Below are positions 15,906-64,000 of a DNA stretch of 64,000 bases, piece after piece. Position numbers and translations under genes: made by a program. The stretch lies in the sequence record MF158044. One strand, 5' to 3'. The notes below the pieces were generated by a model, which was not told where the DNA came from, searched no databases, and saw only the letters and a list, made by a program, of their open reading frames with translations. Positions within the stretch are counted from its first letter, which is position 1. The number at the start of each line of letters is the position of its first letter. This DNA comes from Shigella phage Sf18.

Positions 15906-15930
15906 GGGGCTGCTTCGGCAGCCTTTTTTA
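15906..15930 (+). terminator. rho-independent terminator after rIIB-like gene
   Basis: GGCTGC-ttcg-GCAGCC then TTTTTTA. Confidence 0.6.
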
Positions 15931-15931
15931 T

Positions 15932-15959
15932 TTGAAAAATGTGCAGGTTAGTGTATAAT
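15932..15959 (+). promoter_or_regulatory. sigma70-like promoter upstream of SLT gene
   Basis: TTGAAA-N16-TATAAT. Confidence 0.55.
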
Positions 15960-17696: not shown

Positions 17697-17723
17697 TAGA
17701 GGCTCCTTCGGGAGCCTTTTTCA
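17697..17723 (+). terminator. rho-independent terminator
   Basis: AGAGGCTCC-ttcg-GGAGCCT then TTTTT; same sequence as minus-strand terminator at 35041-35069. Confidence 0.6.
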
Positions 17724-17740
17724 TTTCTAGGAGAAGTTAA

Positions 17741-19064: not shown

Positions 19065-19257
19065 TTTCTGCACTAAGTGTTCTGTTGAGATGTTTGGAAA
19101 AGACACAGGGGACTTAAAAGGCCTCTTTACAAAAGCAGAGTTTGAAGCTGGTTCAGCAATGCCAGTAATCTGTGAAGGTTGTGGTGCTTTATGGGTAGAC
19201 CATGAAGGTAACCGAGTTAAACCATCTGAAGATAACGAACGTTGGGAGCATTACTAA
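19057..19257 (+). CDS. small Cys-rich (zinc-ribbon-like) protein
   Basis: 66 aa; CxxC ... CxxC spacing. Confidence 0.35.
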   Translation: MADFCTKCSVEMFGKDTGDLKGLFTKAEFEAGSAMPVICEGCGALWVDHEGNRVKPSEDNERWEHY

Positions 19258-19258
19258 T

Positions 19259-20053
19259 ATGGGTATCGTAAAAATTATTAAAGGTGATATCTTTAAAGAC
19301 TTTGATGGTAAGAAATTTGATATCATTGGTCACGGTTGTAACTGCATGAACTTGATGGGTGCAGGTATTGCAGCAACAATTGCTAAACGCTACCCAAAAG
19401 CTTATGAAACTGACGCTGAAGTTTATGCTACAGTAGGTGGTGAAAATCATAACCCTAAGCATCTAATGCTTGGTAACATCTCTGTAGCACGTTTTAAGCA
19501 GGGTCGAATTGCTAACCTTTACACTCAGGTTATCACTGGCAAAGATGCACGATACAACGCCTTAGAAGCAGCTTTACAGCGTCTTAACAACTACTGTAAA
19601 GTTAATCAACTTAAGAAAGTTGGGCTTCCGATGATTGGTGCAGGGATTGGTGGTCTTGATAGCATGGCTGTACTGTCCATTATCAACCAGACTATGAAGG
19701 ATGTTGACGTTTATATGTATGTCTATGAAGATAAGATGTACAGTCAGTTGACTAGTCCTGTTACTGGTTGGGAGAACTTCAGTGAGCCTCAATACTTTGA
19801 TGGTGTTGCTGTGGTAGGCAAGGATAAAGTTACCCTCAAGGTGAAGCGTAATGGCAAGGTACACACCAGTTACCCTCCGGTTGAGAAGTACAATCGAAGT
19901 AACGCTCAAGTTACCCACCCGTTACAAGGTCACCACCACAGAGCGGTAACGTTTAGCGATGATGCAAGTGTATATATCAATGCGACTACAGAAGAGTTTG
20001 CAGAAGATTATATCACACATGAAAACGTAAACTATGTTGAAGCACGTAACTAA
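19259..20053 (+). CDS. macro-domain (ADP-ribose binding/processing) protein with C-terminal extension
   Basis: ATG at 19259; motifs KGDIF, DIIGHGCNCMNLMGAGIAATI, GLPMIGAGIGG align to the macro-domain core. Confidence 0.65.
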   Translation: MGIVKIIKGDIFKDFDGKKFDIIGHGCNCMNLMGAGIAATIAKRYPKAYETDAEVYATVGGENHNPKHLMLGNISVARFKQGRIANLYTQVITGKDARYNALEAALQRLNNYCKVNQLKKVGLPMIGAGIGGLDSMAVLSIINQTMKDVDVYMYVYEDKMYSQLTSPVTGWENFSEPQYFDGVAVVGKDKVTLKVKRNGKVHTSYPPVEKYNRSNAQVTHPLQGHHHRAVTFSDDASVYINATTEEFAEDYITHENVNYVEARN

Positions 20054-20107
20054 TAAGTTACCCAGATAAACATAGACAAGCCCTCCAAAGTTTGAGTTTA
20101 AAATCTC

Positions 20108-20310
20108 AGGTAAGGGGGGCTTTTTCATTTTAAATTTGTGCAGGTATAGTTGCATAGAACTCTGGACAGATTTCTTTAGCTGAACTCCAAAGGGAAAATT
20201 CATTTCAAATTTGTGCAGGTTTAGACTCCAAAGGGATTTTTCATTTTCAATCTGTGCAGATGCAGTTGGACTCCAAAGGGAAAATTCATTTTCAGTTTGT
20301 GCAGGTAGGT
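20108..20310 (+). repeat. four tandem ~40-50-bp direct repeats ending in TTGTGCAGG
   Basis: Units at ~20108, 20186, 20224, 20268 share CTCCAAAGGGAAAATTCATTTT-A--TTGTGCAGG; C-rich tract follows at 20323-20352. Confidence 0.6.
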
Positions 20311-20479
20311 AGCTGTAGGAAACCAGCCCCACCACCCCCTCTTACTCCCCTTCCTCCCAAAAGTCAAGAGAAAAATTTGTAGAGAACTCAAAAATAATTC
20401 TTGACTAGATTCCTGTTTTAGTGTATCCGCATACGTGCGTTCTATTCACGAAGCATCGAAAATATTTTTAAAAATTTTG

Positions 20480-20508
20480 TTGACTTCATAAATCCAGTCT
20501 TATAGTAT
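20480..20508 (+). promoter_or_regulatory. sigma70-like promoter at start of small-gene island
   Basis: TTGACT-N17-TAGTAT. Confidence 0.55.
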
Positions 20509-20557
20509 TTGCATCAACGGGAAACATCCCAACAATCCTAAACTGGAGAATCTAAAA

Positions 20558-20764
20558 ATGTTATATCAACGTGAGTTAATGATTGTTGACAACAACAAAA
20601 CAAATAAACGTCGTTTCTATATGCTAATTTGTGATGTTTGGCAACGTATCTCAGAAAAGGATTTTGATGAATATGTTGATACGTCAATCAGGTCTGATTG
20701 TTATTTGACAACTCACACAAGGCATTACACAAGGCATACAGCCATTTATTACTATAACGTTTAA
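20558..20764 (+). CDS. hypothetical small protein (cassette gene)
   Basis: ATG preceded by conserved CCTAAACTGGAGA leader and TTGACT-N17-TAGTAT promoter. Confidence 0.5.
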   Translation: MLYQRELMIVDNNKTNKRRFYMLICDVWQRISEKDFDEYVDTSIRSDCYLTTHTRHYTRHTAIYYYNV

Positions 20765-20943: not shown

Positions 20944-20972
20944 TTTACATGGGGTTTAAAAGCTAGTATCTT
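20944..20972 (+). promoter_or_regulatory. type-A cassette promoter with embedded dyad
   Basis: TTTACA-N17-TATCTT; GGGGTTT...AAGCCCC inverted repeat spans spacer and -10. Confidence 0.5.
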
Positions 20973-21023
20973 AAGCCCCCAGATAAAGAGCTTTACCAAC
21001 AATCCTAAACTGGAGAATCTAAA

Positions 21024-21404
21024 ATGAAATATCGTGCGCCTAAATTTATCAACAAAGAAAACTTTCGTAGTATCTTAGAGGAAACTATGAAAGAAAACTT
21101 CAAAGGAAAAATAATTGTTGTTCACGCTTACAATTTTAAGTATGATGTTAATGGTAACCGTATTAACCACTACAAAGCTACTATGCTTGACGGTACATTA
21201 TCCGGTGAAAAAGCTATCATAAATGCTATTGCAGGACGTGGTAAAACTGTGATACGCTGTGAAAAAAGACGCTATCAAGGCGGTAAATATGGGTATGAAG
21301 ATGCAATGTACCATCTTGATAAAATGGGGTATGATGTAGAGAAAGCTGGAGTATCTCAAACTATTGGTAGTGACGGCTACGTTACAGTTTTCAAAATTAA
21401 CTAA
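21024..21404 (+). CDS. hypothetical small protein (cassette gene)
   Basis: Preceded by type-A cassette (promoter with dyad) and CCTAAACTGGAGAATCTAAA-ATG leader. Confidence 0.55.
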   Translation: MKYRAPKFINKENFRSILEETMKENFKGKIIVVHAYNFKYDVNGNRINHYKATMLDGTLSGEKAIINAIAGRGKTVIRCEKRRYQGGKYGYEDAMYHLDKMGYDVEKAGVSQTIGSDGYVTVFKIN

Positions 21405-21413
21405 ATAAAGTCC

Positions 21414-21442
21414 TTTACATGGGGTTTATAGTTAGATAAGAT
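21414..21442 (+). promoter_or_regulatory. type-A cassette promoter with embedded dyad
   Basis: TTTACA-N17-TAAGAT; same cassette recurs before genes at 21845, 22442, 23449, 24263, 25506, 25789. Confidence 0.5.
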
Positions 21443-21495
21443 AAGCCCCAGATAAAGAGCTTTACCAAACAATAACCTAAACTGGAGTATCAAAA

Positions 21496-21753
21496 ATGGC
21501 TACTATCAAAAACATCATTGTATCTGCAAAATCTCGTGATGACGCTCGCGCAACTGCTAAAAAACTAAATGGTAAAGTGGTTGACAACGGAAAAGAATCT
21601 GCTGTAAGATGGGGCGTAAAATGTGATAAGGAAATTACTTTAAAACGTAGTTCCTATGACCTTTTCAAAGGTGTAAAAGCAATCGGTAGAACTAACGTCT
21701 ACACGAAGAAAGGTTATAAAATGCACTTATCATTAACTGACAATTTAATCTGA
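21496..21753 (+). CDS. hypothetical small protein (cassette gene)
   Basis: Type-A cassette upstream. Confidence 0.55.
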   Translation: MATIKNIIVSAKSRDDARATAKKLNGKVVDNGKESAVRWGVKCDKEITLKRSSYDLFKGVKAIGRTNVYTKKGYKMHLSLTDNLI

Positions 21754-21844
21754 TAAAGTGCTTTACATGGGGTTTATAGTTAGATAATATAAGCCCCAGA
21801 TAAAGAGCTTTACTAACCAATAGTCCTAAACTGGAGAATCTAAA

Positions 21845-22357
21845 ATGAATTTTGTTGAAGCTACCTTTGAAGTCCAAAAAGAAAAATTCACTATCATCTA
21901 TGAAGCTGTTAATATTTGTGAAGCATCCCATTGTGTGGAGAATTGGAAGTTTACCGATGAGCACAAAGGCGGGGTTACAATCAAACTTAAAAATCCAGAG
22001 CGTAACGGGTACAAATATGCAATTCCACAGCATTACAGCCTTTCACAATTGATGAGTGATTATGCTAAACAAGGCCGCGAAAATCCATCTATAGAGGCTT
22101 ACAAGAGCTTACAAGATGAATTACAAAGAGATTTAGAGGCTAACAGCTACGTGCTATTTGCAAAGGTAGAAGATAAAGAAGGTAATACAGTATTAAATAG
22201 CTTTTCTCTTGCTTATGGCTTCGATTGGTGCTATCTTGACGGGGAAGATTTAGATTCACGATTAGAAGAGGAAGTGTCGAACTCCGATGGAGAATCTGAA
22301 GTAATGGAACGTTTAGAAGCCTTGAAAGATTCTGTTATGAATATCTTTAATATCTAA
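21845..22357 (+). CDS. hypothetical acidic protein (cassette gene)
   Basis: Type-A cassette upstream; acidic C-terminal half. Confidence 0.55.
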   Translation: MNFVEATFEVQKEKFTIIYEAVNICEASHCVENWKFTDEHKGGVTIKLKNPERNGYKYAIPQHYSLSQLMSDYAKQGRENPSIEAYKSLQDELQRDLEANSYVLFAKVEDKEGNTVLNSFSLAYGFDWCYLDGEDLDSRLEEEVSNSDGESEVMERLEALKDSVMNIFNI

Positions 22358-22441
22358 AAGTGCTTTACATGGGGTTATCAAGTTGATAAGATAGCCCCAG
22401 ATAAAGAGCTTTACAAACAATCCTAAACTGGAGAATCTAAA

Positions 22442-22738
22442 ATGTTTATTGCCGCAAACGTTAGAACTAAATTAAGCCAGCTATTAAGTAATATCCAATT
22501 CATTGAATCTATGCGCCGTACATCTGAAGCCGTAGAGTGGTATCATGGAAAGATTAACAAAAAGGAAGTAATAATTTGTGTATGGAACTTTTGTAAAGAA
22601 TACAAAAAACCATTGCTTCAGGTTGATATCTATGATAACACTAATAAGTCATCGATTAAGACCACTAGAGATATGGTTGATTCATATGAAATTAGTCACA
22701 CTGGTAAACTATTCCACAAAGGTAAAAACAAATGTTAA
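22442..22738 (+). CDS. hypothetical small protein (cassette gene)
   Basis: Type-A cassette upstream. Confidence 0.55.
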   Translation: MFIAANVRTKLSQLLSNIQFIESMRRTSEAVEWYHGKINKKEVIICVWNFCKEYKKPLLQVDIYDNTNKSSIKTTRDMVDSYEISHTGKLFHKGKNKC

Positions 22739-23079
22739 TCACATACGTTGCAATTTTTATCTCTATTGTGGCGCTCTATAAAGCCTTACAAGCGCACAGT
22801 ATAGCTAATAAGGCACTTACAAGGGATTTAAAAATAAACCTTGTACGGGGCTTTCTAGAGCGTTTAAGCTTAGAACAATTGAAACGCTTAGAGATGAGCT
22901 TTCGATTCAAAGCAGAAACATACCGGATTGATAACATCCTAGACGGGGATTTTAAATTAATCAGTGATTATGACATACTTCTTGAGTCAATTCAAGATAT
23001 AAACCTGAAAGATTATTATATCGTGATAGCGCAAGAAATTAATAAAAAAGAGCTTGCAATGCAGAATCAAAACAAGTAA
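22732..23079 (+). CDS. hypothetical membrane protein
   Basis: N-terminal TM helix; 3' end (LAMQNQNK-stop) plus downstream promoter duplicated at 26434-26480. Confidence 0.45.
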   Translation: MLITYVAIFISIVALYKALQAHSIANKALTRDLKINLVRGFLERLSLEQLKRLEMSFRFKAETYRIDNILDGDFKLISDYDILLESIQDINLKDYYIVIAQEINKKELAMQNQNK

Positions 23080-23113
23080 AGTATTCATCAACGGTACTAA
23101 TGACGGTCGAACT

Positions 23114-23359
23114 TTGAACGTAACTTTAAAACACTATATAGACGGTGTATTAAACTTTGAAGAGTTAAGAGCAGAACAGCACCTATTAGATTGGCAAGTA
23201 GCAGGTTTACAAAAAACCGCCACAGGATATGGAAAGAAAATTCCTACATCTTGGAAAGTTCGATACCTTGGAAAGTTACGCAGAATTTATCAAGATGTTT
23301 ACAGTAATAGCGGCGTAAGTTACATTATTGTTAGTGGTAAAAAATTGTATTTAGTCTAA
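23114..23359 (+). CDS. hypothetical protein, possible TTG-initiated or decaying gene
   Basis: Long ORF downstream of TTGCAA-N17-TAAAGT promoter has no in-frame ATG; TTG at 23114 tentative. Confidence 0.25.
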   Translation: MNVTLKHYIDGVLNFEELRAEQHLLDWQVAGLQKTATGYGKKIPTSWKVRYLGKLRRIYQDVYSNSGVSYIIVSGKKLYLV

Positions 23360-23448
23360 TAAATTGCTTTACATGGGGTTATCAAGTTGCTAAGATAGCC
23401 CCAGATAAAGAGATTTATCTAAAACTAACCTAAACTGGAGACTAGAAA

Positions 23449-23856
23449 ATGACTAATGTTAATCACAAAGAAGTTGCAATTTTGAAAGCACGTTTGACCA
23501 TTAACCGCATCAACATTGTAACATCAGCAGCACCAGACGAAACACTACATAATATCATCGGTAAAATTCAGGGCGCAGTAGTAGACACAAAACAGCTTAA
23601 AGAATCCTTGCAAGATGTAGCAGCAGGAGCTATAATTGACGGTGCTCAATATGAGATGAAGGAAATGCTGTCAAAGTCAAAAGTAATGAATAAAGAACTT
23701 GACTTGAAAATGTTTAGATTTGCTGTTAAAGTGTGGCTATGTGTTGATTTTGATGCAAACTTTGCAATTGCTGATTTCTTTGCAACATGGTTACAGCGTA
23801 ACTTACCGGTTGAAGTTTTCCGTGAAATCTGCGATGCAATTTATTCAGAAATTTGA
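23449..23856 (+). CDS. hypothetical protein (cassette gene)
   Basis: Type-A-like cassette upstream. Confidence 0.5.
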   Translation: MTNVNHKEVAILKARLTINRINIVTSAAPDETLHNIIGKIQGAVVDTKQLKESLQDVAAGAIIDGAQYEMKEMLSKSKVMNKELDLKMFRFAVKVWLCVDFDANFAIADFFATWLQRNLPVEVFREICDAIYSEI

Positions 23857-23885
23857 TTGACACTGCAAAAGCATAGTAGTAAAGT
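23857..23885 (+). promoter_or_regulatory. type-C cassette promoter
   Basis: TTGACA-N17-TAAAGT followed by conserved leader. Confidence 0.5.
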
Positions 23886-23928
23886 ACTCATCAGACAACG
23901 AAACAACCCTAAACTGGAGATTCAAAAG

Positions 23929-24177
23929 ATGAAAACAAAAACACAACTCAAAAGTATGATGAAAAATGGTTTTCTCGATGATGTATACAAAGAATGTAGA
24001 CGGTATGGGGAAATAAAAAGTAATTTCGATTTTGAGTACACGTATACAGTGAATTTCAAAACTAACGAACGAAAAACAGACCTTGTAACTGAGATTCAAA
24101 TAGAATACAAAGATTTATTATGGACTTTTGAACTTGTAAAAGGTTTATGCACATCGGCAGGTTATAAAAACATCTAA
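23929..24177 (+). CDS. hypothetical small protein (cassette gene)
   Basis: ATG after CCCTAAACTGGAGA leader; ORF-track TTG start 23857 is the -35 element. Confidence 0.5.
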   Translation: MKTKTQLKSMMKNGFLDDVYKECRRYGEIKSNFDFEYTYTVNFKTNERKTDLVTEIQIEYKDLLWTFELVKGLCTSAGYKNI

Positions 24178-24262
24178 AAGTGCTTTACATGGGGTTTATA
24201 GTTAGATAAGATAAGCCCCAGATAAAGAGCTTTACCAACAATCCTAAACTGGAGAATCTAAA

Positions 24263-24820
24263 ATGAAATGCTTTCATGGTACTACACAAGAAAACTTTGT
24301 AAACCTTATCAATGGCGGTGATAAACCATCAGGAGCTTGGAATTGCTCTGATATGGATGGATGTTTTTACGTCTACCCTGTTAACAAGTTCTATGATGTA
24401 GAGAATCTGGATGACGAACAAATCACAGATGAAGGTATTAGAAACGCGCTTGATAGCGCAAGCATTACAGCAGCCTATCAAATGAAGTCACAAAAGCTTG
24501 TTATCTTGGAACTGGATATTCCAGAAGATGATTTACAAGATGACTGGAGCTGTGAGAACATGAGCGACGTAGCAAGCTTTACAGAATATTTCGATAAAGA
24601 ATGGATTAAAAAGGTTTACACAACTGAATTTAATGCTATGTATGCGCCTTTCTTTGTCCCTAACCTAAACAATAGAAATTTAGGATATGTACCAGACGAA
24701 CTACGCAACATTGCAGAAATAGTCCAACGTAGTGATGGGATGAGCAATGTATATTGTGATATCTTTGACACCATGCAATGCAACGTAACAGAAACGGTTA
24801 TAAACGACTTAACAGCATAA
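24263..24820 (+). CDS. hypothetical acidic protein (cassette gene)
   Basis: Type-A cassette upstream; strongly acidic. Confidence 0.55.
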   Translation: MKCFHGTTQENFVNLINGGDKPSGAWNCSDMDGCFYVYPVNKFYDVENLDDEQITDEGIRNALDSASITAAYQMKSQKLVILELDIPEDDLQDDWSCENMSDVASFTEYFDKEWIKKVYTTEFNAMYAPFFVPNLNNRNLGYVPDELRNIAEIVQRSDGMSNVYCDIFDTMQCNVTETVINDLTA

Positions 24821-24883
24821 ACCATAGAATCACACCAGTTCACTAGAAAAGCCCCGCACAGGGGCTTACAAGAGGCTTAAAAC

Positions 24884-25114
24884 ATGCTTACTACAATCTA
24901 TCTTATTCTATCTATCTGCAATGGTTCACAGTGTGACTTTAAAGGTTTAGAAGAGTTTACAGGTAGCGAAAATAATGCTATTGTTGCCTGTCAGATAGCA
25001 AGGCAAGACTACCCAACATCGGATGATATCCAATGTTACTATAAGTCAGAAGATGATGAAGGTATTTACTTTGATAGTGTGAATGGTGAATATGAGATTC
25101 TTATAGAAAAGTAG
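24884..25114 (+). CDS. hypothetical small protein, possible signal peptide
   Basis: AAGAGG RBS; hydrophobic N-terminus LILSICNG; perfect hairpin upstream. Confidence 0.45.
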   Translation: MLTTIYLILSICNGSQCDFKGLEEFTGSENNAIVACQIARQDYPTSDDIQCYYKSEDDEGIYFDSVNGEYEILIEK

Positions 25115-25143
25115 TTGACACTGAAAACGCAAGAAAGTAAAGT
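25115..25143 (+). promoter_or_regulatory. type-C cassette promoter
   Basis: TTGACA-N17-TAAAGT then GGGAAACATCCC dyad and CCTAAACTGGAGA leader. Confidence 0.5.
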
Positions 25144-25192
25144 ATTCATCAACGGGAAACATCCCAACAATCCTAAACTGGAGATTCAAAAA

Positions 25193-25414
25193 ATGTTGCA
25201 AGTTCTTAACGTAAAAACCATTGATTTTAAATTCTCAAATGTTCGTCGTACCTATTTACAGCCGTTTAGTAAACCTGTTAGGATTCCCAACGATGACGCT
25301 AAAAAGTTGATTGATGAAATTCTAGCTAATGGCGGTTATCTGGCTAGTCATAAGCAGTATAATGATGAGGATGGAAGCCTGATAAATGAGTTTACATATT
25401 ATTACTACAAATAA
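25193..25414 (+). CDS. hypothetical small protein (cassette gene)
   Basis: ATG after conserved leader; ORF-track TTG start 25115 is the -35 element. Confidence 0.5.
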   Translation: MLQVLNVKTIDFKFSNVRRTYLQPFSKPVRIPNDDAKKLIDEILANGGYLASHKQYNDEDGSLINEFTYYYYK

Positions 25415-25505
25415 CTAATAAAGTGCTTTACATGGGGTTTATAGTTAGCTAAGATAAGCCCCAGATAAAGAGCTTTACCAACAATCCTAAACTGGAGAAT
25501 CTAGA

Positions 25506-25703
25506 ATGTTATCACTGATGCAAAAACTTTCTACCTTGTGGTGTTTAAAAGGTGTAGAGTGTAACCTTAACATGGAAGGTTCAAAGATAGACCTAAAAAT
25601 AGTATACAATGGAGAAATACTATTCTCACAGAATAGCAGTCATCCACACTTCAAAGATAATGCAATTATGGCCGTGAATAATCTGATGGATAGAATTTAT
25701 TAA
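25506..25703 (+). CDS. hypothetical small protein (cassette gene)
   Basis: Type-A cassette upstream. Confidence 0.5.
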   Translation: MLSLMQKLSTLWCLKGVECNLNMEGSKIDLKIVYNGEILFSQNSSHPHFKDNAIMAVNNLMDRIY

Positions 25704-25788
25704 AGTGCTTTACATGGGGTTTAAAAGCTAGTATCTTAAGCCCCAGAGAAAGAGCTTTACCAACAATCCTAAACTGGAGAATCTGAAA

Positions 25789-26130
25789 ATGGCCTATGTA
25801 ACAATTATCACCGATAAAGAAAATTCGTCATGGTCTACCCAAGTTAACGACAAAATGAAACCTATGCAGTGTCTCAAGTACTTTGAGCAATGGAACAGGG
25901 GAGAAGATGTAAGCCCCTTTCAAGTGATGCAGATTGTACATGTTGACAATGAAGGGAATAAAACTACCCTTAACACTGAATACTATGCTACACGTTTCGA
26001 AACTCGCAAATCAGCTATGCAGGAGTTAAGAGAAAAGGGATATAGTCACATTGCCGCGCTCATTTGGTCTGATTTGCTTAAAAAACAGTCATTAACCTAT
26101 GTTAAGCCAGAAAAAATCTTTATAAGCTAA
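25789..26130 (+). CDS. hypothetical protein (cassette gene)
   Basis: Type-A cassette upstream. Confidence 0.55.
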   Translation: MAYVTIITDKENSSWSTQVNDKMKPMQCLKYFEQWNRGEDVSPFQVMQIVHVDNEGNKTTLNTEYYATRFETRKSAMQELREKGYSHIAALIWSDLLKKQSLTYVKPEKIFIS

Positions 26131-62115: not shown

Positions 62116-64000
62116 TGGCTGGATTAACAACTACAGGTTTACAAACAAAAAGATATCAAGAAATCTTGGATGATGTTAAAGCAAGTCTGTATAGAGATAT
62201 CTCACCAAACCTTGATGTTTCTGAAGATAGCGAACTTGGGTTATTCTTAGCTTCTGTTTGCCGAGGTCTTGCAGACGTTCATGAAATCTTGTCAGAAATC
62301 TATGATGGTGGTACTATTGACAAAGCTGAAGGATTCAGTTTAGATGATGTAACAGCTTTGAATGCTGTATACAGATATGTGGCACAGGCTACAAGAGGTC
62401 AAGCTGAGTTCACTGGTAATTCTGGTGCTTCTGTACCAGCCACTACAAGATTAAGAAGCACAGCAGGTAACATCTTTTACCCTGTGTCAACTTTCACACT
62501 GACTCCATCTTACTGTGTAGAGGCAAACTTAGAAGTTAACTCTTTACGAACAGATGCAAACTATGTTATTATCATTGACAACATTGAGTATTCATATCAG
62601 CCGACTAGTTCTGATACCATTACAACATTGCTACAGAAACTTGCAGATGCTATTAATGGTGGTATTATTGCAAAGGCTGAAGTTACTAATGATGGTTCAG
62701 TTCTGAGAATCTATAAAGACACTGGAGATATCATTGCCAGAACTAACCCTATGGTTGTTACTGCAACGACATTCTTAACATTTACAAAGATTACTTCAAT
62801 CAGTGACGTTGTAGCAGATGAAACTGGAGCTATCCAGACTCTTGCAGGAACCTTGATTGAGATTGAAACAACTGTAGATGGTCTCGATAGTGTTTTCAAC
62901 AGATATGACTTGACAACAGGTCGTGATGAGGAAACTGACACAGAACTGAGACAACGTTACTTAGAATCTCTGGCTGTTACTGGTGTAGGTACTCTAGATG
63001 CTATTGTAGCTGCTGTCAAGAGAGTTCAAGGACCATTACAACATTGCTACAGAAACTTGCAGATGCTATTAATGGTGGTATTATTGCAAAGGCTGAAGTT
63101 ACTAATGATGGTTCAGTTCTGAGAATCTATAAAGACACTGGAGATATCATTGCCAGAACTAACCCTATGGTTGTTACTGCAACGACATTCTTAACATTTA
63201 CAAAGATTACTTCAATCAGTGACGTTGTAGCAGATGAAACTGGAGCTATCCAGACTCTTGCAGGAACCTTGATTGAGATTGAAACAACTGTAGATGGTCT
63301 CGATAGTGTTTTCAACAGATATGACTTGACAACAGGTCGTGATGAGGAAACTGACACAGAACTGAGACAACGTTACTTAGAATCTCTGGCTGTTACTGGT
63401 GTAGGTACTCTAGATGCTATTGTAGCTGCTGTCAAGAGAGTTCAAGGTGTGTCTGATGCTTCTGGTGTAGAAAATGATACTGAGACAACAAACTCTGATG
63501 GTCTTCCTCCGAAGTCTTTTAAGATTGTTGTAGTTGGTGGTCAGAATGATAATATTGCACAGGCAATCTGGGACACGAAACCTGCTGGTATTCGCCCATA
63601 TGGTTCAATCTTTGGGACTGCATATGACTTAGGTTCTCTCCCTCACGACGTTTACTTTAGTAGACCAATGCCTAAATACGTTTTTGTCAAGGTTACTTAC
63701 TCTCTTTACGATGAAGAAACTCTTAACATCCCTGAGCAGGATATTCATGACAGAATTGTTCAAGGTATTAATGCCTACGGTAGAACTTTGAAAGTTGGTA
63801 ACGATGTAATCCCTAACAGAATCTATGGACATATCTATGATGTGATTCAAGGTATCGAGATTAATGAGATTAAGGTTGCACTTTCAAATAACCAAGCAAT
63901 TCCACCTGCTGAGGGGCAGTACACAACCTCAAGAATCACTATTGATGGTGACCAGTACACTGTTTGGGAAAGCTCACAGTATACAATTACCAAGGAGTAA
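62115..64000 (+). pseudogene. baseplate J-like protein gene interrupted by a 416-bp tandem duplication
   Basis: N-terminal frame stops at 63122 after junction; original frame resumes and runs to TAA at 63998-64000; deleting one copy restores ~489-aa ORF. Confidence 0.6.
62616..63447 (+). repeat. perfect tandem direct duplication, 2 x 416 bp
   Basis: 62616-63031 identical by eye to 63032-63447; identical translations in ORF track on both strands. Confidence 0.85.

Follow-up and report, generated by a model that had tools for sequence, protein, structure and literature searches.

What is the function of the direct repeats that stand in front of the small early genes of Shigella phage Sf18, and do they belong to a gene, to a set of promoters or terminators, to a replication origin or to a regulatory element? 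The window, by which we mean the whole stretch of 64,000 nucleotides (64 kb) analysed here from sequence record MF158044, represents a Mooglevirus genome (Felix O1-like, Ounavirinae), and the repeats lie inside a 504-bp gap with a macro-domain gene on one side and the small early-gene island on the other. This 0.5-kb gap shows the strongest non-coding conservation among the family DNA examined. Both the transcription timing and the replication start of the Felix O1-like phages were stated as open by Whichard 2010 (PMC3185647). The array is neither described nor covered by data in the genome papers of Felix O1, wV8 and UAB_Phi87 and in the Bas63 PhageMaP preprint, and we found no description of it in the searchable literature. 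As the sequence comparisons given below show, it is kept almost unchanged across the subfamily.

Organisation of the repeat array

Four units were identified on the + strand. They share a bipartite core, A/T5-TCATTT-N7-GTGCAG, within a 28-base motif:

20119-20146, + strand: core of unit 1, GCTTTTTCATTTTAAATTTGTGCAGGTA (41.6 bits with the position-weight matrix, PWM)
20147-20175, + strand: spacer between units 1 and 2 (mean pairwise identity 0.73)
20194-20221, + strand: core of unit 2, GAAAATTCATTTCAAATTTGTGCAGGTT (PWM 33.9 bits; identity 1.0 for TCATTT and 0.99 for GTGCAG)
20235-20262, + strand: core of unit 3, GATTTTTCATTTTCAATCTGTGCAGATG (PWM 38.3 bits)
20280-20307, + strand: core of unit 4, GAAAATTCATTTTCAGTTTGTGCAGGTA (PWM 36.0 bits)

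A repeat search placed 43-nt copies at 20103, 20178, 20219 and 20264 (67-88% identity to the reference; spacing 75/41/45), while exact TCATTT-N7-GTGCAG cores start at 20125, 20200, 20241 and 20286. TRF detected units 2-4 only (20184-20306, period 45, 2.9 copies, score 147). The number of units thus agrees with the four tandem repeats of ~40 bp described in an earlier note on this DNA, but the ~40-bp tandem arrangement applies to units 2-4 and not to unit 1, which lies 75 bp upstream. The repeat unit and the common ending claimed there do not hold for all copies either: unit 3 terminates in CTGTGCAGA instead of ...CAGG, and unit 1 lacks CTCCAAAGGG, its upstream half being the 3' arm of a terminator hairpin. 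Ahead of TCATTT, units 1 and 3 carry T5, and units 2 and 4 an A-rich tract. The spacer that separates units 1 and 2 contains TTGCATAGAACTCTGGACAG, which is similar to the unit end TTGTGCATAGGAACTGGCAAC of Erwinia phage Pistou and may be what is left of an additional unit.

The degenerate 20-mer TCATTTYMARNNYGTGCAGR matches all four units with 0 mismatches, and at up to 3 mismatches it has 7 matches in the window where 1.6 are expected, a number reached in none of 100 shuffles. The bare 8-mer TGTGCAGG, recommended in the earlier note for a motif search, gives no significant result (4 matches vs 1.9 expected; 14 of 100 shuffles reach 4). With the PWM, which was derived from 12 phages, the four units score 33.9-41.6 bits, and the maximum over 20 shuffles is 15.8. 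That four units far beyond chance all lie on the transcribed strand supports an array of binding sites.

Unit 1 and the terminator of the macro-domain gene

Unit 1 is a genuine intrinsic terminator, and the only unit in which a hairpin is combined with a U-tract:

20078-20133, + strand: intrinsic terminator, hairpin 20078-20122 followed by TTTTTCATTTT (fold -20.4 kcal/mol, z -3.5)

The T-tract of unit 1 doubles as the U-tract of this terminator, which closes the transcription unit of the macro-domain gene and is equivalent to t13 of Felix O1, as contained in the terminator listing of Whichard 2010 (PMC3185647). Orthologous hairpins with different stem sequences occur in Felix O1 (-23.6 kcal/mol), phiWec174 (-22.9 kcal/mol) and Pistou (-12.5 kcal/mol), and G-U pairs restrict the hairpin to the + strand. 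No stable hairpin is formed by units 2-4 (-1.2 to -7.6 kcal/mol, z ~0 or above; for unit 2, -3.5 kcal/mol and z +0.5).

The whole locus might be a compound transcription barrier that would shield the early island from polymerases reading through from upstream: behind the strong terminator there would be three U-rich modules of the pause or 'decapitated terminator' kind, and then a C-rich tract for Rho loading (rut). Such a barrier would make use of the real terminator in unit 1, of the sequence TTTTYATTT, which is carried by all units and forms the tail behind the other terminators of the phage, and of the untranslated 70 nt 3' of unit 4, where the + strand has 26 C vs 12 G; units 2-4 even resemble terminators with collapsed stems (CTCC-AAA-GGGA). 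However, besides the missing hairpins of units 2-4, the tracts of units 2 and 4 are A-rich and not U-rich, the invariant GTGCA box plays no part in intrinsic termination, a rut site would be expected ahead of the pause sites and lies here behind them, and the C-rich tract is missing in ~40% of relatives. We therefore consider the barrier unlikely.

Unit 1 also contains a weak sigma-70-like match (TTTTCA-N17-TATAGT, 20122-20150, + strand, 9/12 in the promoter scan), and a TAnnnT hexamer follows 2 nt past its GTGCA in 20/33 relatives. The earlier note had supposed a regulator-binding or promoter array at the entry to the small-gene island. Its location and the regulator-binding part fit our results, as discussed below, but the promoter array does not. 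If each unit were a promoter for host RNA polymerase, perhaps with a phage factor replacing -35/-10 recognition, the sigma-70-like hexamer pairs at unit 1 and at a further copy at 15.9 kb would be explained, and so would the 'TA' after GTGCA(GG) in most units. Against this, the match in unit 1 is the only one in the array, units 2-4 have no hexamer pair 16-18 bp apart with A at -11 and T at -7 and no -10 at a fixed distance, the hexamers behind GTGCA are variable and in most genomes without the T at -7, and the conserved bases fall off the -35/-10 positions. The position of GTGCAG relative to the -10 differs between unit 1 and the 15.9-kb promoter, a sigma-54 GG/GC geometry could not be read from the sequence, and the motif is found in none of the other promoters of the genome, nor is it repeated ahead of other Felix O1 genes. 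Tandem promoters accordingly seem very improbable. A general promoter class was rejected as well, since scanning the window and the complete Felix O1 genome with the PWM revealed no further strong sites (in the 86-kb Felix O1 genome, four strong sites and one weak copy after rIIB, with no others of at least 12 bits).

Conservation of the array among relatives

The relatives were checked for the repeats, and the array is kept in all 255 matching phage records. All 12 phages that were picked by BLAST for an alignment covering three genera have exactly four in-register units. The copy number is 3 or 4, and three units are found in 6/34 relatives, generated by one 39-bp (unit-length) deletion across units 2-3; this tolerated loss of a whole unit is as expected of redundant binding sites. 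The mean pairwise identity of TCATTT and GTGCAG is 0.97-1.0, values that are inflated by selection because the IMG/VR loci behind them were found by the two-core pattern, and the same comparison gives 0.65 in the adjacent gene at third codon positions and 0.69-0.80 in inter-unit spacers. The higher identity of the cores indicates selection on the DNA sequence, and core blocks that stay invariant while neighbouring third codon positions have diverged are what a regulator-binding array would show. Moreover, the swap between A-tract and T-tract keeps the DNA shape but not the RNA sequence, which points to recognition of DNA.

The bipartite 23-nt core is near-identical in four genera, whose hosts are Escherichia, Salmonella, Citrobacter, Shigella and Erwinia. 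In Pistou (Kolesnikvirus), four units occupy the equivalent place; the core of unit 1 there, TTTTTCATTTTCAATTTGTGCA, is identical to unit 3 of the window at 21/22 bases, although the neighbouring macro-domain protein is only 35% identical. The Felix O1 counterpart of unit 4 (GGGCAAGAAAAATCATTTT...) is in turn nearly identical to unit 3 of Pistou. Unit spacing is not in constant helical phase between genera (39-45 bp vs 37-39 bp), so a fixed higher-order complex is not implied. A scan of IMG/VR for two adjacent cores yielded Felix-like contigs only (51-94 kb, most ~85-90 kb), plus one chance match outside the subfamily, an unrelated tandem duplication.

The array is non-coding. Open frames of 33-105 codons run across it on both strands in every genome, and annotators have called them as genes (GenBank Mordin_126, Sf15_gp10, Moogle115 and EcSzw2_16, - strand; wV8 gene 13, + strand). 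A small protein gene is nevertheless hardly credible: from genome to genome these open frames change in strand, in start codon, in frame and in length (33-105 aa), the difference in spacing (75/41/45 vs 73/39/45) puts orthologous units out of frame between clades, and in wV8 the loss of 2 nt alters the frame once more. Ribosome-binding sites are lacking, and conservation peaks in the cores with no three-base periodicity. Several 'hypothetical proteins' placed over the array in databases are probably not genes.

A structured RNA was also rejected, as there is no stable fold (z +0.09 on the + strand and -0.25 on the - strand) and a double change is seen in 3/70 predicted pairs, none of them within units, with no covariation. 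Scanning 18-23 kb against Rfam with E values up to 1 gave only a chance miRNA match elsewhere and none below E = 0.5. We also considered a non-coding RNA with four repeated modules, acting as a sponge or antisense regulator and starting either rightward from the weak promoter of unit 1 or leftward from TTGACT-N17-TAAGAG/TAGCCT. Candidate promoters at conserved positions on both strands would suit it, as would the CCUCC motifs of the + strand, which resemble anti-Shine-Dalgarno sequences, and the 'ORF14' region of Felix O1 is transcribed according to RT-PCR (maximum at 25 min; the signal does not tell the strand). We still find such an RNA improbable, because neither strand has a stable or covarying structure or an Rfam family, the A5/T5 swap alters the RNA sequence, one allele would give a G-rich leader and the other a C-rich one, and the leftward transcript would have no terminator and its promoter is absent in Pistou. 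Taken together, the failure of coding, RNA structure, Rfam and hairpins in units 2-4 supports the binding-site array.

Two further candidates were discarded. A CRISPR-like mini-array or RNA anti-CRISPR does not agree with the period of 37-45 bp and variable parts of 13-17 nt vs ~32-nt spacers, the units are presumably unlike type I-E/I-F CRISPR repeats, and 5,426 E. coli genomes contained no match. A genome terminus or packaging site is contradicted by the terminal repeat of UAB_Phi87, which maps to the tRNA cluster at ~43.3-43.85 kb, 23 kb off; the tRNA scan of the window placed 25/25 tRNAs at 40-45 kb. The ends of the UAB_Phi87 record share an exact repeat of 542 bp, and the terminal repeat is given as 608 bp in PMC4837284.

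A weaker copy after rIIB

One weaker copy of the motif is located about 4 kb upstream of the array:

15922-15949, + strand: fifth copy, TTTTTTATTTGAAAAATGTGCAGGTT (PWM 21.9 bits), within a feature of hairpin, copy and promoter at 15907-15959

The hairpin of the rIIB terminator (15907-15924) directly precedes this copy, which extends across the -35 and spacer of TTGAAA-N16-TATAAT, a promoter at 15932-15959 (11/12 in the promoter scan). The earlier note had seen the repeat box in this promoter spacer; the link is confirmed, with the complete 28-nt motif and not the 8-mer as its basis. The same arrangement of rIIB terminator, copy and promoter is found in Felix O1 and 8 other relatives. A copy over the -35 and spacer of a near-consensus promoter, where operators sit, supports an operator reading of the motif. 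It counts against the array model, however, that the copy is not invariant (GTGTAG in 2/10) and was not found when looked for in Pistou.

Between the array and the early genes

The array lies after the terminator of the macro-domain gene and ahead of the first early-island promoters, which are ~95-175 bp downstream, and so occupies the island entry as had been proposed. The following features were found on this side:

20327-20358, either strand: polypyrimidine (+) / polypurine (-) tract CCCCACCACCCCCTCTTACTCCCCTTCCTCCC, lowest conservation of the gap (0.60)
20339-20367, - strand: candidate leftward promoter, TTGACT (20367-20362)-N17-TAAGAG (20344-20339), from the census of relatives
20359-20406, either strand: most conserved block of the gap, AAAAGTCAAGAG-N-TTCTTGACT (mean pairwise identity 0.947; invariant alignment columns)
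20401-20429, + strand: candidate rightward promoter, TTGACT-N17-TATCCG, from the hexamer census of 33 relatives and the alignment
20455-20508, + strand: A/T-rich UP-like tract AAAATATTTTTAAAAATTTT (20455-20479) and first strong early promoter, TTGACT-N17-TAGTAT (20480-20508), from the promoter scan
20531-20560, + strand: conserved early leader and ribosome-binding site, CAACAATCCTAAACTGGAG, with the ATG of the first small early gene at 20558

The polypyrimidine tract reported earlier is real and extends over 20327-20358, but it is not a fixed part of the element. It is present in 18/34 relatives and is replaced in 13/34 by an unrelated segment of the same length that aligns gap-free to the Felix O1 form in the 12-phage alignment. 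The tract is rut-like on the + strand RNA, where those 13 relatives have 13-15 C vs 19-21 G instead. Its complement on the - strand is the sole canonical G3 quadruplex motif on both strands of the window.

The candidate leftward promoter would transcribe this G-rich tract and the array antisense. It reads TTGACT-N17-TAAGAG in 15 relatives and TTGACT-N17-TAGCCT in 13, with spacer and -10 segments that are not homologous; its weak points are the G at -7 in the TAAGAG form and the lack of an equivalent in Pistou. The conserved block contains two back-to-back -35-like hexamers, which lie in an 8-bp inverted repeat (AGTCAAGA / TCTTGACT) with an A/T-rich core between; the pairing of its arms is reported by RNAalifold without covariation. 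The -10-like hexamer of the candidate rightward promoter always starts with TA and usually ends in G, and the first strong early promoter has TTGACT/TAGTAT or TAATAT in 26/32 relatives. The early leader is repeated ahead of most island genes and is annotated as repeat_region plus RBS in the record of phage Mordin.

These surroundings bring in the main rival to a binding-site array, a replication origin, which we nonetheless rate as rather unlikely. The units would be iterons for an initiator or for loading a T7-like primase-helicase, the A/T-rich tract would be the unwinding element, and transcription from the adjacent promoters would serve for priming, possibly with an R-loop stabilised by the G-rich/C-rich tract. 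The 3-4 direct repeats at a single locus per genome (iterons call for at least three), the A/T-rich tract with strong promoters <200 bp away, and the window's only quadruplex-capable tract just downstream of the candidate leftward promoter are all consistent with this, and the phage family has T7-like replication genes and none of its origins is known. The Pistou unit end GTGCATAG/A fits the relaxed DnaA box TGTGNAWAA at 8/9 positions, but the match is only 6/9 in the Felix and Moogle types, and the array of the window has neither a DnaA nor an IHF consensus. Moreover, no initiator gene is adjacent and the nearby proteins have no DNA-binding domain matches, the G/C-rich tract is replaced in 13 of the 34 genomes, and a promoter 4 kb away contains the fifth copy. 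GC skew is not inverted at 20 kb, an observation of little weight since the genes there are all in one orientation. A more specific scenario, which we hold to be quite doubtful, would combine the array, the back-to-back promoters and the quadruplex tract into an R-loop-primed origin of the Felix O1-like phages: a leftward transcript made by the host polymerase would stay on the G-rich tract as a stable R-loop or hybrid quadruplex, as at mitochondrial CSBII or ColE1. DNA synthesis primed in this way would run into the four units, whose role would be to load or position the T7-like primase-helicase.

Proposed function of the array

We favour, with a probability of roughly 0.38, an operator- or iteron-like array that would be bound by a putative conserved protein and control transcription at the boundary between the terminator and the early promoters. 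The array would be a cis-acting DNA element with 3-4 same-orientation sites for a putative sequence-specific DNA-binding protein, each site having the core TCATTT(T)-N6/7-GTGCA with an A5 or T5 tract in front, and it would act directly 3' of the intrinsic terminator that ends the rII-to-macro-domain transcription unit. The bound protein could block or modulate read-through and the weak promoter of unit 1, and/or set how active the neighbouring back-to-back promoters are. The post-rIIB promoter would be a further target in the Felix, Moogle and Susp clades, through the single copy over its -35 and spacer. Many other early-island promoters are devoid of the motif, hence any regulation would be local.

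A core so nearly identical in phages infecting five host genera speaks for a partner that is itself very conserved; it might come from the host or be one of the core proteins of the phages. If the partner is of phage origin, the HTH_3 protein ORF85 of Felix O1 is one candidate. It speaks against the array model that the core fits none of the consensus sequences of IHF, DnaA, CRP, Fur, LexA, ArgR and Fis; a search with these and with the oriC 13-mer found nothing above background. Sites for MarA/SoxS/Rob, OmpR, sigma-54 and sigma-E, judged by eye, agreed poorly in spacing or key bases. As a check for host mimicry, similarity to the array was looked for in 5,426 complete E. coli genomes and none was found. 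The near-identical core provides a concrete probe for fishing out the regulator or initiator, and with a partner of host origin the array would show which host factor is needed at the start of infection. Felix O1-like phages serve for typing Salmonella, for biocontrol and for therapy, and one of the group, Bas63, has become an engineering model.

Comparison with known systems

The array can be compared with several known arrangements. The injection-stop-signal region of phage T5 is repeat-rich and non-coding and bounds the earliest genes; similarly, the array is ~23 kb from the physical right end as inferred from UAB_Phi87, but unlike in T5, late genes (endolysin, tail protein) lie between the array and that end. 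We know of no report of two-step DNA transfer for Felix O1-like phages. R-loop-primed origins with G-rich elements, such as ColE1 RNA II and mitochondrial LSP-CSBII, resemble the locus in that a promoter-like element is directly followed by a non-template tract rich in runs of G5-6 (GGGGGGAGGGGGAG... in Felix O1), and the phage has a replisome of the T7 or mitochondrial type. Unlike in these origins, the -10 is poor here (TAAGAG) and the tract is replaced in 13/34.

With tandem intrinsic terminators the array shares the hairpin and U-tract of unit 1 and the TTTTYATTT tail of all units, but units 2-4 are hairpin-free, two units have A-tracts, and the invariant GTGCA is unrelated to termination. 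At rrnB P1, with its UP element and three Fis sites, and in T7, with its tandem early promoters A1-A3, several sites also stand in a row upstream of strong early promoters with A/T-rich UP-like DNA; unlike these, the array has no Fis consensus, its units are not promoters, and a 50-nt G/C-rich tract intervenes.

Promoter-early stem-loop (PeSL) cassettes of T4-type phages, reportedly described by Arbiol et al. 2010, resemble our locus in the association of repeated regulatory cassettes with a plastic small early-gene island. PeSL-like cassettes composed of TTTACA-N17-TAAGAT, a stem-loop and the conserved leader are present in the island itself, which extends to the right of the array at 20.9-25.8 kb. 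In contrast, the array units have no promoter hexamers, units 2-4 have no stem-loop, and the units are clustered in one gap and not dispersed.

Iteron and operator arrays include the lambda ori iterons, plasmid iterons, lambda OR/OL and the Mu operators, and iterons are spaced by ~20-24 bp. The array differs from iteron arrays in its bipartite core of ~23-28 bp, its spacing of 37-45 bp (first interval 73-75), the lack of an adjacent gene for the binding protein and of DnaA/IHF sites, and the fusion of unit 1 to the U-tract of a terminator. Yet, as in iteron and operator arrays, 3-4 direct sequence-specific repeats, here putative binding sites, are gathered at one locus with A/T-rich DNA and promoters adjoining, a single extra copy lies over a promoter, and the copy number varies by one unit.

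Genomic setting of the array

Over the 3 kb surrounding the array, identity reaches 97-98% with Shigella phages Henu11, Sf15 and Sf13 and 88-91% with Citrobacter phage Mordin and Escherichia phage SUSP1, and is about 75% with many Felix O1-like phages, which identifies the window as a Mooglevirus genome (Ounavirinae). All genes from 155 to about 28,000 lie on the + strand, and the array sits in a 504-bp non-coding gap (20054-20557) between a 283-aa macro-domain protein (19202-20053; Pfam Macro), labelled 'phosphatase' in relatives' records, and many small genes, the first from 20558. From left to right the gap comprises:

20078-20122, + strand: long terminator hairpin, then TTTTTCATTTT
+ strand: unit 1, its T-tract doubling as the terminator's U-tract
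spacer of 29 nt, unit 1 to unit 2
+ strand: units 2, 3 and 4
C-rich tract, after unit 4
20359-20406: 47-bp block with the top conservation in the gap (mean pairwise identity 0.947)
A/T-rich UP-like tract, then a good promoter, TTGACT-N17-TAGTAT (20480-20508, + strand)
leader CAACAATCCTAAACTGGAG, common to most island genes

The hairpin with TTTTTCATTTT is the Felix O1 terminator t13 (PMC3185647). In the 47-bp block, back-to-back -35-like hexamers AGTCAAGA...TCTTGACT flank A/T-rich DNA; they form an 8-bp inverted repeat. Each has a -10-like partner, TAAGAG for the leftward and TATCCG for the rightward one, with a final G in place of T.

The small-gene island (20944-25790) holds near-identical cassettes, e.g. 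at 20944, 21414, 21762, 22364, 23368, 24184, 25427 and 25709, ordered AAAGTGC-TTTACA-N17-TAAGAT, AAGCCCCAGATAAAGAGCTTTACC (a stem-loop pairing better on the - strand) and leader CAACAATCCTAAACTGGAG. They match the 57-bp repeats noted for Felix O1 (PMC3185647) and Mordin's annotated 14-bp 'repeat_region' features, and are reminiscent of the promoter-early stem-loop cassettes known from T4-type phages. Elsewhere, at 62616-63447, 416 bp are duplicated in tandem without a mismatch (2.0 copies, 100% identity). This length is not divisible by 3, and the ORF from 62115 stops at 63122 within the second copy, so that the baseplate-wedge gene, 489 aa long in Felix O1, appears to be split; the duplication is either an artefact of assembly or real and disruptive.

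Repeat units and their distribution

Direct sequence reading, repeat search and TRF agree with the earlier note on four units, which all lie on one strand. Their cores, TCATTT-N7-GTGCAG, begin at 20125, 20200, 20241 and 20286 (spacing 75, 41 and 45). A degenerate 20-mer fits all four with 0 mismatches and, with up to three allowed, matches seven times in the window, more than in any of 100 shuffles; a position-weight matrix from 12 phages gives the units 34-42 bits, whereas shuffled sequence never exceeds 15.8 bits. Some details of that description need correction: the end of unit 3 reads CAGA, CTCCAAAGGG is missing from unit 1, and TGTGCAGG has no significance as a bare 8-mer. The polypyrimidine tract does exist, at 20327-20358, and neither strand of the 64 kb has a canonical G3 quadruplex motif other than its complement.

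Apart from the four units, no site in the complete Felix O1 genome reaches 12 bits with the matrix. When 2.9 million viral contigs were searched for a pair of adjacent cores, all hits but one were Felix-like contigs (51-94 kb, most about 85-90 kb); the exception was an unrelated tandem duplication. The 5,426 E. coli genomes searched held no similarity to the array. A weaker fifth copy, TTTTTTATTTGAAAAATGTGCAGG (21.9 bits), lies immediately 3' of the rIIB terminator and overlaps the -35 and spacer of a promoter, TTGAAA-N16-TATAAT. This arrangement recurs in Felix O1 and eight further relatives (with GTGTAG in two) and is absent after rIIB in Erwinia phage Pistou.

Conservation among relatives

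As sole query, the gap matched 255 phage records across Felixounavirus, Suspvirus and Mooglevirus, 235 of them covering at least 80% of it. Exactly four in-register units occur in all 12 phages picked from the BLAST list; in six of 34 relatives a clean deletion of one unit has left three. Among 33 distinct sequences, which include IMG/VR loci retrieved by a pattern demanding two cores, mean pairwise identity is 0.97-1.0 for TCATTT, 0.99-1.0 for GTGCAG, 0.68-0.82 for the intervening N7 and 0.69-0.80 for inter-unit spacers; in the macro-domain gene it is 0.65 at third codon positions.

The comparison with Pistou (Kolesnikvirus), whose macro-domain protein is just 35% identical, is the strongest single result. 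Four units (W5-YATTTT-N6-YGTGCATAG; spacing 37, 37 and 39 bp) follow a terminator, and a C-rich tract, GTCAAG, A/T-rich DNA and a TTGACT promoter come after them, in the layout of the window; Pistou unit 1 differs from unit 3 of the window at one position of the 22-base core. Pistou also has an annotated ProQ-like RNA chaperone gene between nadV and rIIA (L051, its locus here, 2192-2653), and in Felix O1-type phages the gene for a Ro60-like RNA-binding protein lies directly upstream of the tRNA genes clustered there.

Terminator at unit 1

The terminator at unit 1 is real. Its hairpin folds at -20.4 kcal/mol (z -3.5) and G-U pairs make it specific to the + strand; the orthologous hairpins (Felix O1 -23.6, phiWec174 -22.9, Pistou -12.5 kcal/mol) fold despite different stem sequences, so the structure has been kept through sequence change. 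Units 2-4 form no stable hairpin (-1.2 to -7.6 kcal/mol, z about 0 or above) and were rejected as terminators on these folds. Since all units carry the tail TTTTYATTT, which also follows the other terminators of this phage, they look like terminator tails stripped of their stems, to which a GTGCA box has been added. A compound terminator with a Rho site would account for the terminator-like tails and the C tract, but leaves GTGCA, the A-tracts and the element order unexplained, and we regard it as rather improbable.

Several terminators, at 17698-17727, 35047 (- strand), 7930 and 15907, share identical hairpins (GGCTCCTTCGGGAGCC, GGGAACTGTAAAAGGTTCCC) and the TTTTYATTT tail, which suggests that the genome copies or homogenises such cassettes. 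In the unit-1 hairpin, the 3' arm contains a near-perfect Shine-Dalgarno (TAAGGGGGG, 20108-20117; TAAGGAGG in Felix-type phages, as in the Felix O1 locus L016, 7972-7981), and CCTCC is present in the C-rich tract downstream; folding runs gave no support for long-range pairing between the two.

Readings of the array

Coding was rejected, as ORFs crossing the array vary in strand, start, length (33-105 aa) and frame, and spacing of 75/41/45 in the window versus 73/39/45 in the Felix clade puts orthologous units in different frames. A small protein encoded here is hence poorly supported and hardly credible, and the hypothetical proteins annotated over the array are probably spurious. Those over 20054-20400 in KT363872, MF158041, NC_027293, MH791400, ON528732 and EU877232 are mutually inconsistent (61-102 aa on the - strand, 54 aa on the + strand), and RefSeq Felix O1 has none across the array.

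The promoter array that the earlier note proposed as one of two options fared poorly: promoter scan, unit alignment, hexamer census and matrix scans rejected the units as a promoter class, and tandem promoters seem very unlikely. Rfam, folding and covariation results rejected a structured RNA. A non-coding RNA bearing the repeats would fit candidate promoters on both strands, the leftward one (TTGACT-N17-TAAGAG or TAGCCT) keeping its position in 28 of 33 relatives on non-homologous segments of two forms; it would lack structure and a terminator, however, and the leftward candidate has no Pistou equivalent, so that we consider it improbable. RT-PCR, not strand-resolved, detected transcripts of the Felix O1 interval ('ORF14') that peak at 25 min, as do those of the upstream operon.

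The C-rich tract has two allelic forms. The C-rich one, with a quadruplex motif on the minus strand, occurs in 18 of 34 relatives; in 13, its place is taken by an unrelated segment of equal length that carries G-runs on the plus strand. No particular sequence is therefore required here, but the constant length suggests that the distance from unit 4 to the promoter block is constrained. A replication origin would fit the iteron-like repeats, A/T-rich tract, promoters and R-loop-prone tract, but the G/C tract is replaceable, and the array shows no DnaA or IHF sites, adjacent initiator gene or skew signal; we consider it unlikely. A genome end was rejected: the experimentally determined terminal repeat of UAB_Phi87 (PMC4837284), a 542-bp repeat at both ends of its record, maps about 23 kb away in the tRNA cluster. 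In the window this corresponds to about 43300-43850, between tRNA-Arg and tRNA-Gln/Leu, where the physical ends of this phage type probably lie.

The evidence points instead to recognition of the array as double-stranded DNA by a putative sequence-specific protein. Two invariant blocks stand about one helical turn apart; the A5/T5 flanking tract is interchangeable, keeping DNA shape and not RNA sequence; all sites share one orientation at a single locus; loss of one unit leaves the phage viable; and the extra copy occupies an operator position inside a promoter. None of the consensus sites tried for known host factors matched the array, and a core so nearly identical among phages infecting five host genera suggests that the putative partner is itself highly conserved. 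Given its place at the front of the early region, just after a strong terminator, the array may serve in transcriptional control or as an insulator at this boundary, exerted by the protein that would bind it; this is the reading we prefer, with a confidence of 0.38.

The array is not described in the genome papers on Felix O1, wV8 and UAB_Phi87 or in the Bas63 essentiality study. This previously undescribed cis element, present throughout the subfamily, belongs to a well-known general type, the repeated binding-site array; its unusual traits are its fusion to a terminator tail and the depth of its conservation.
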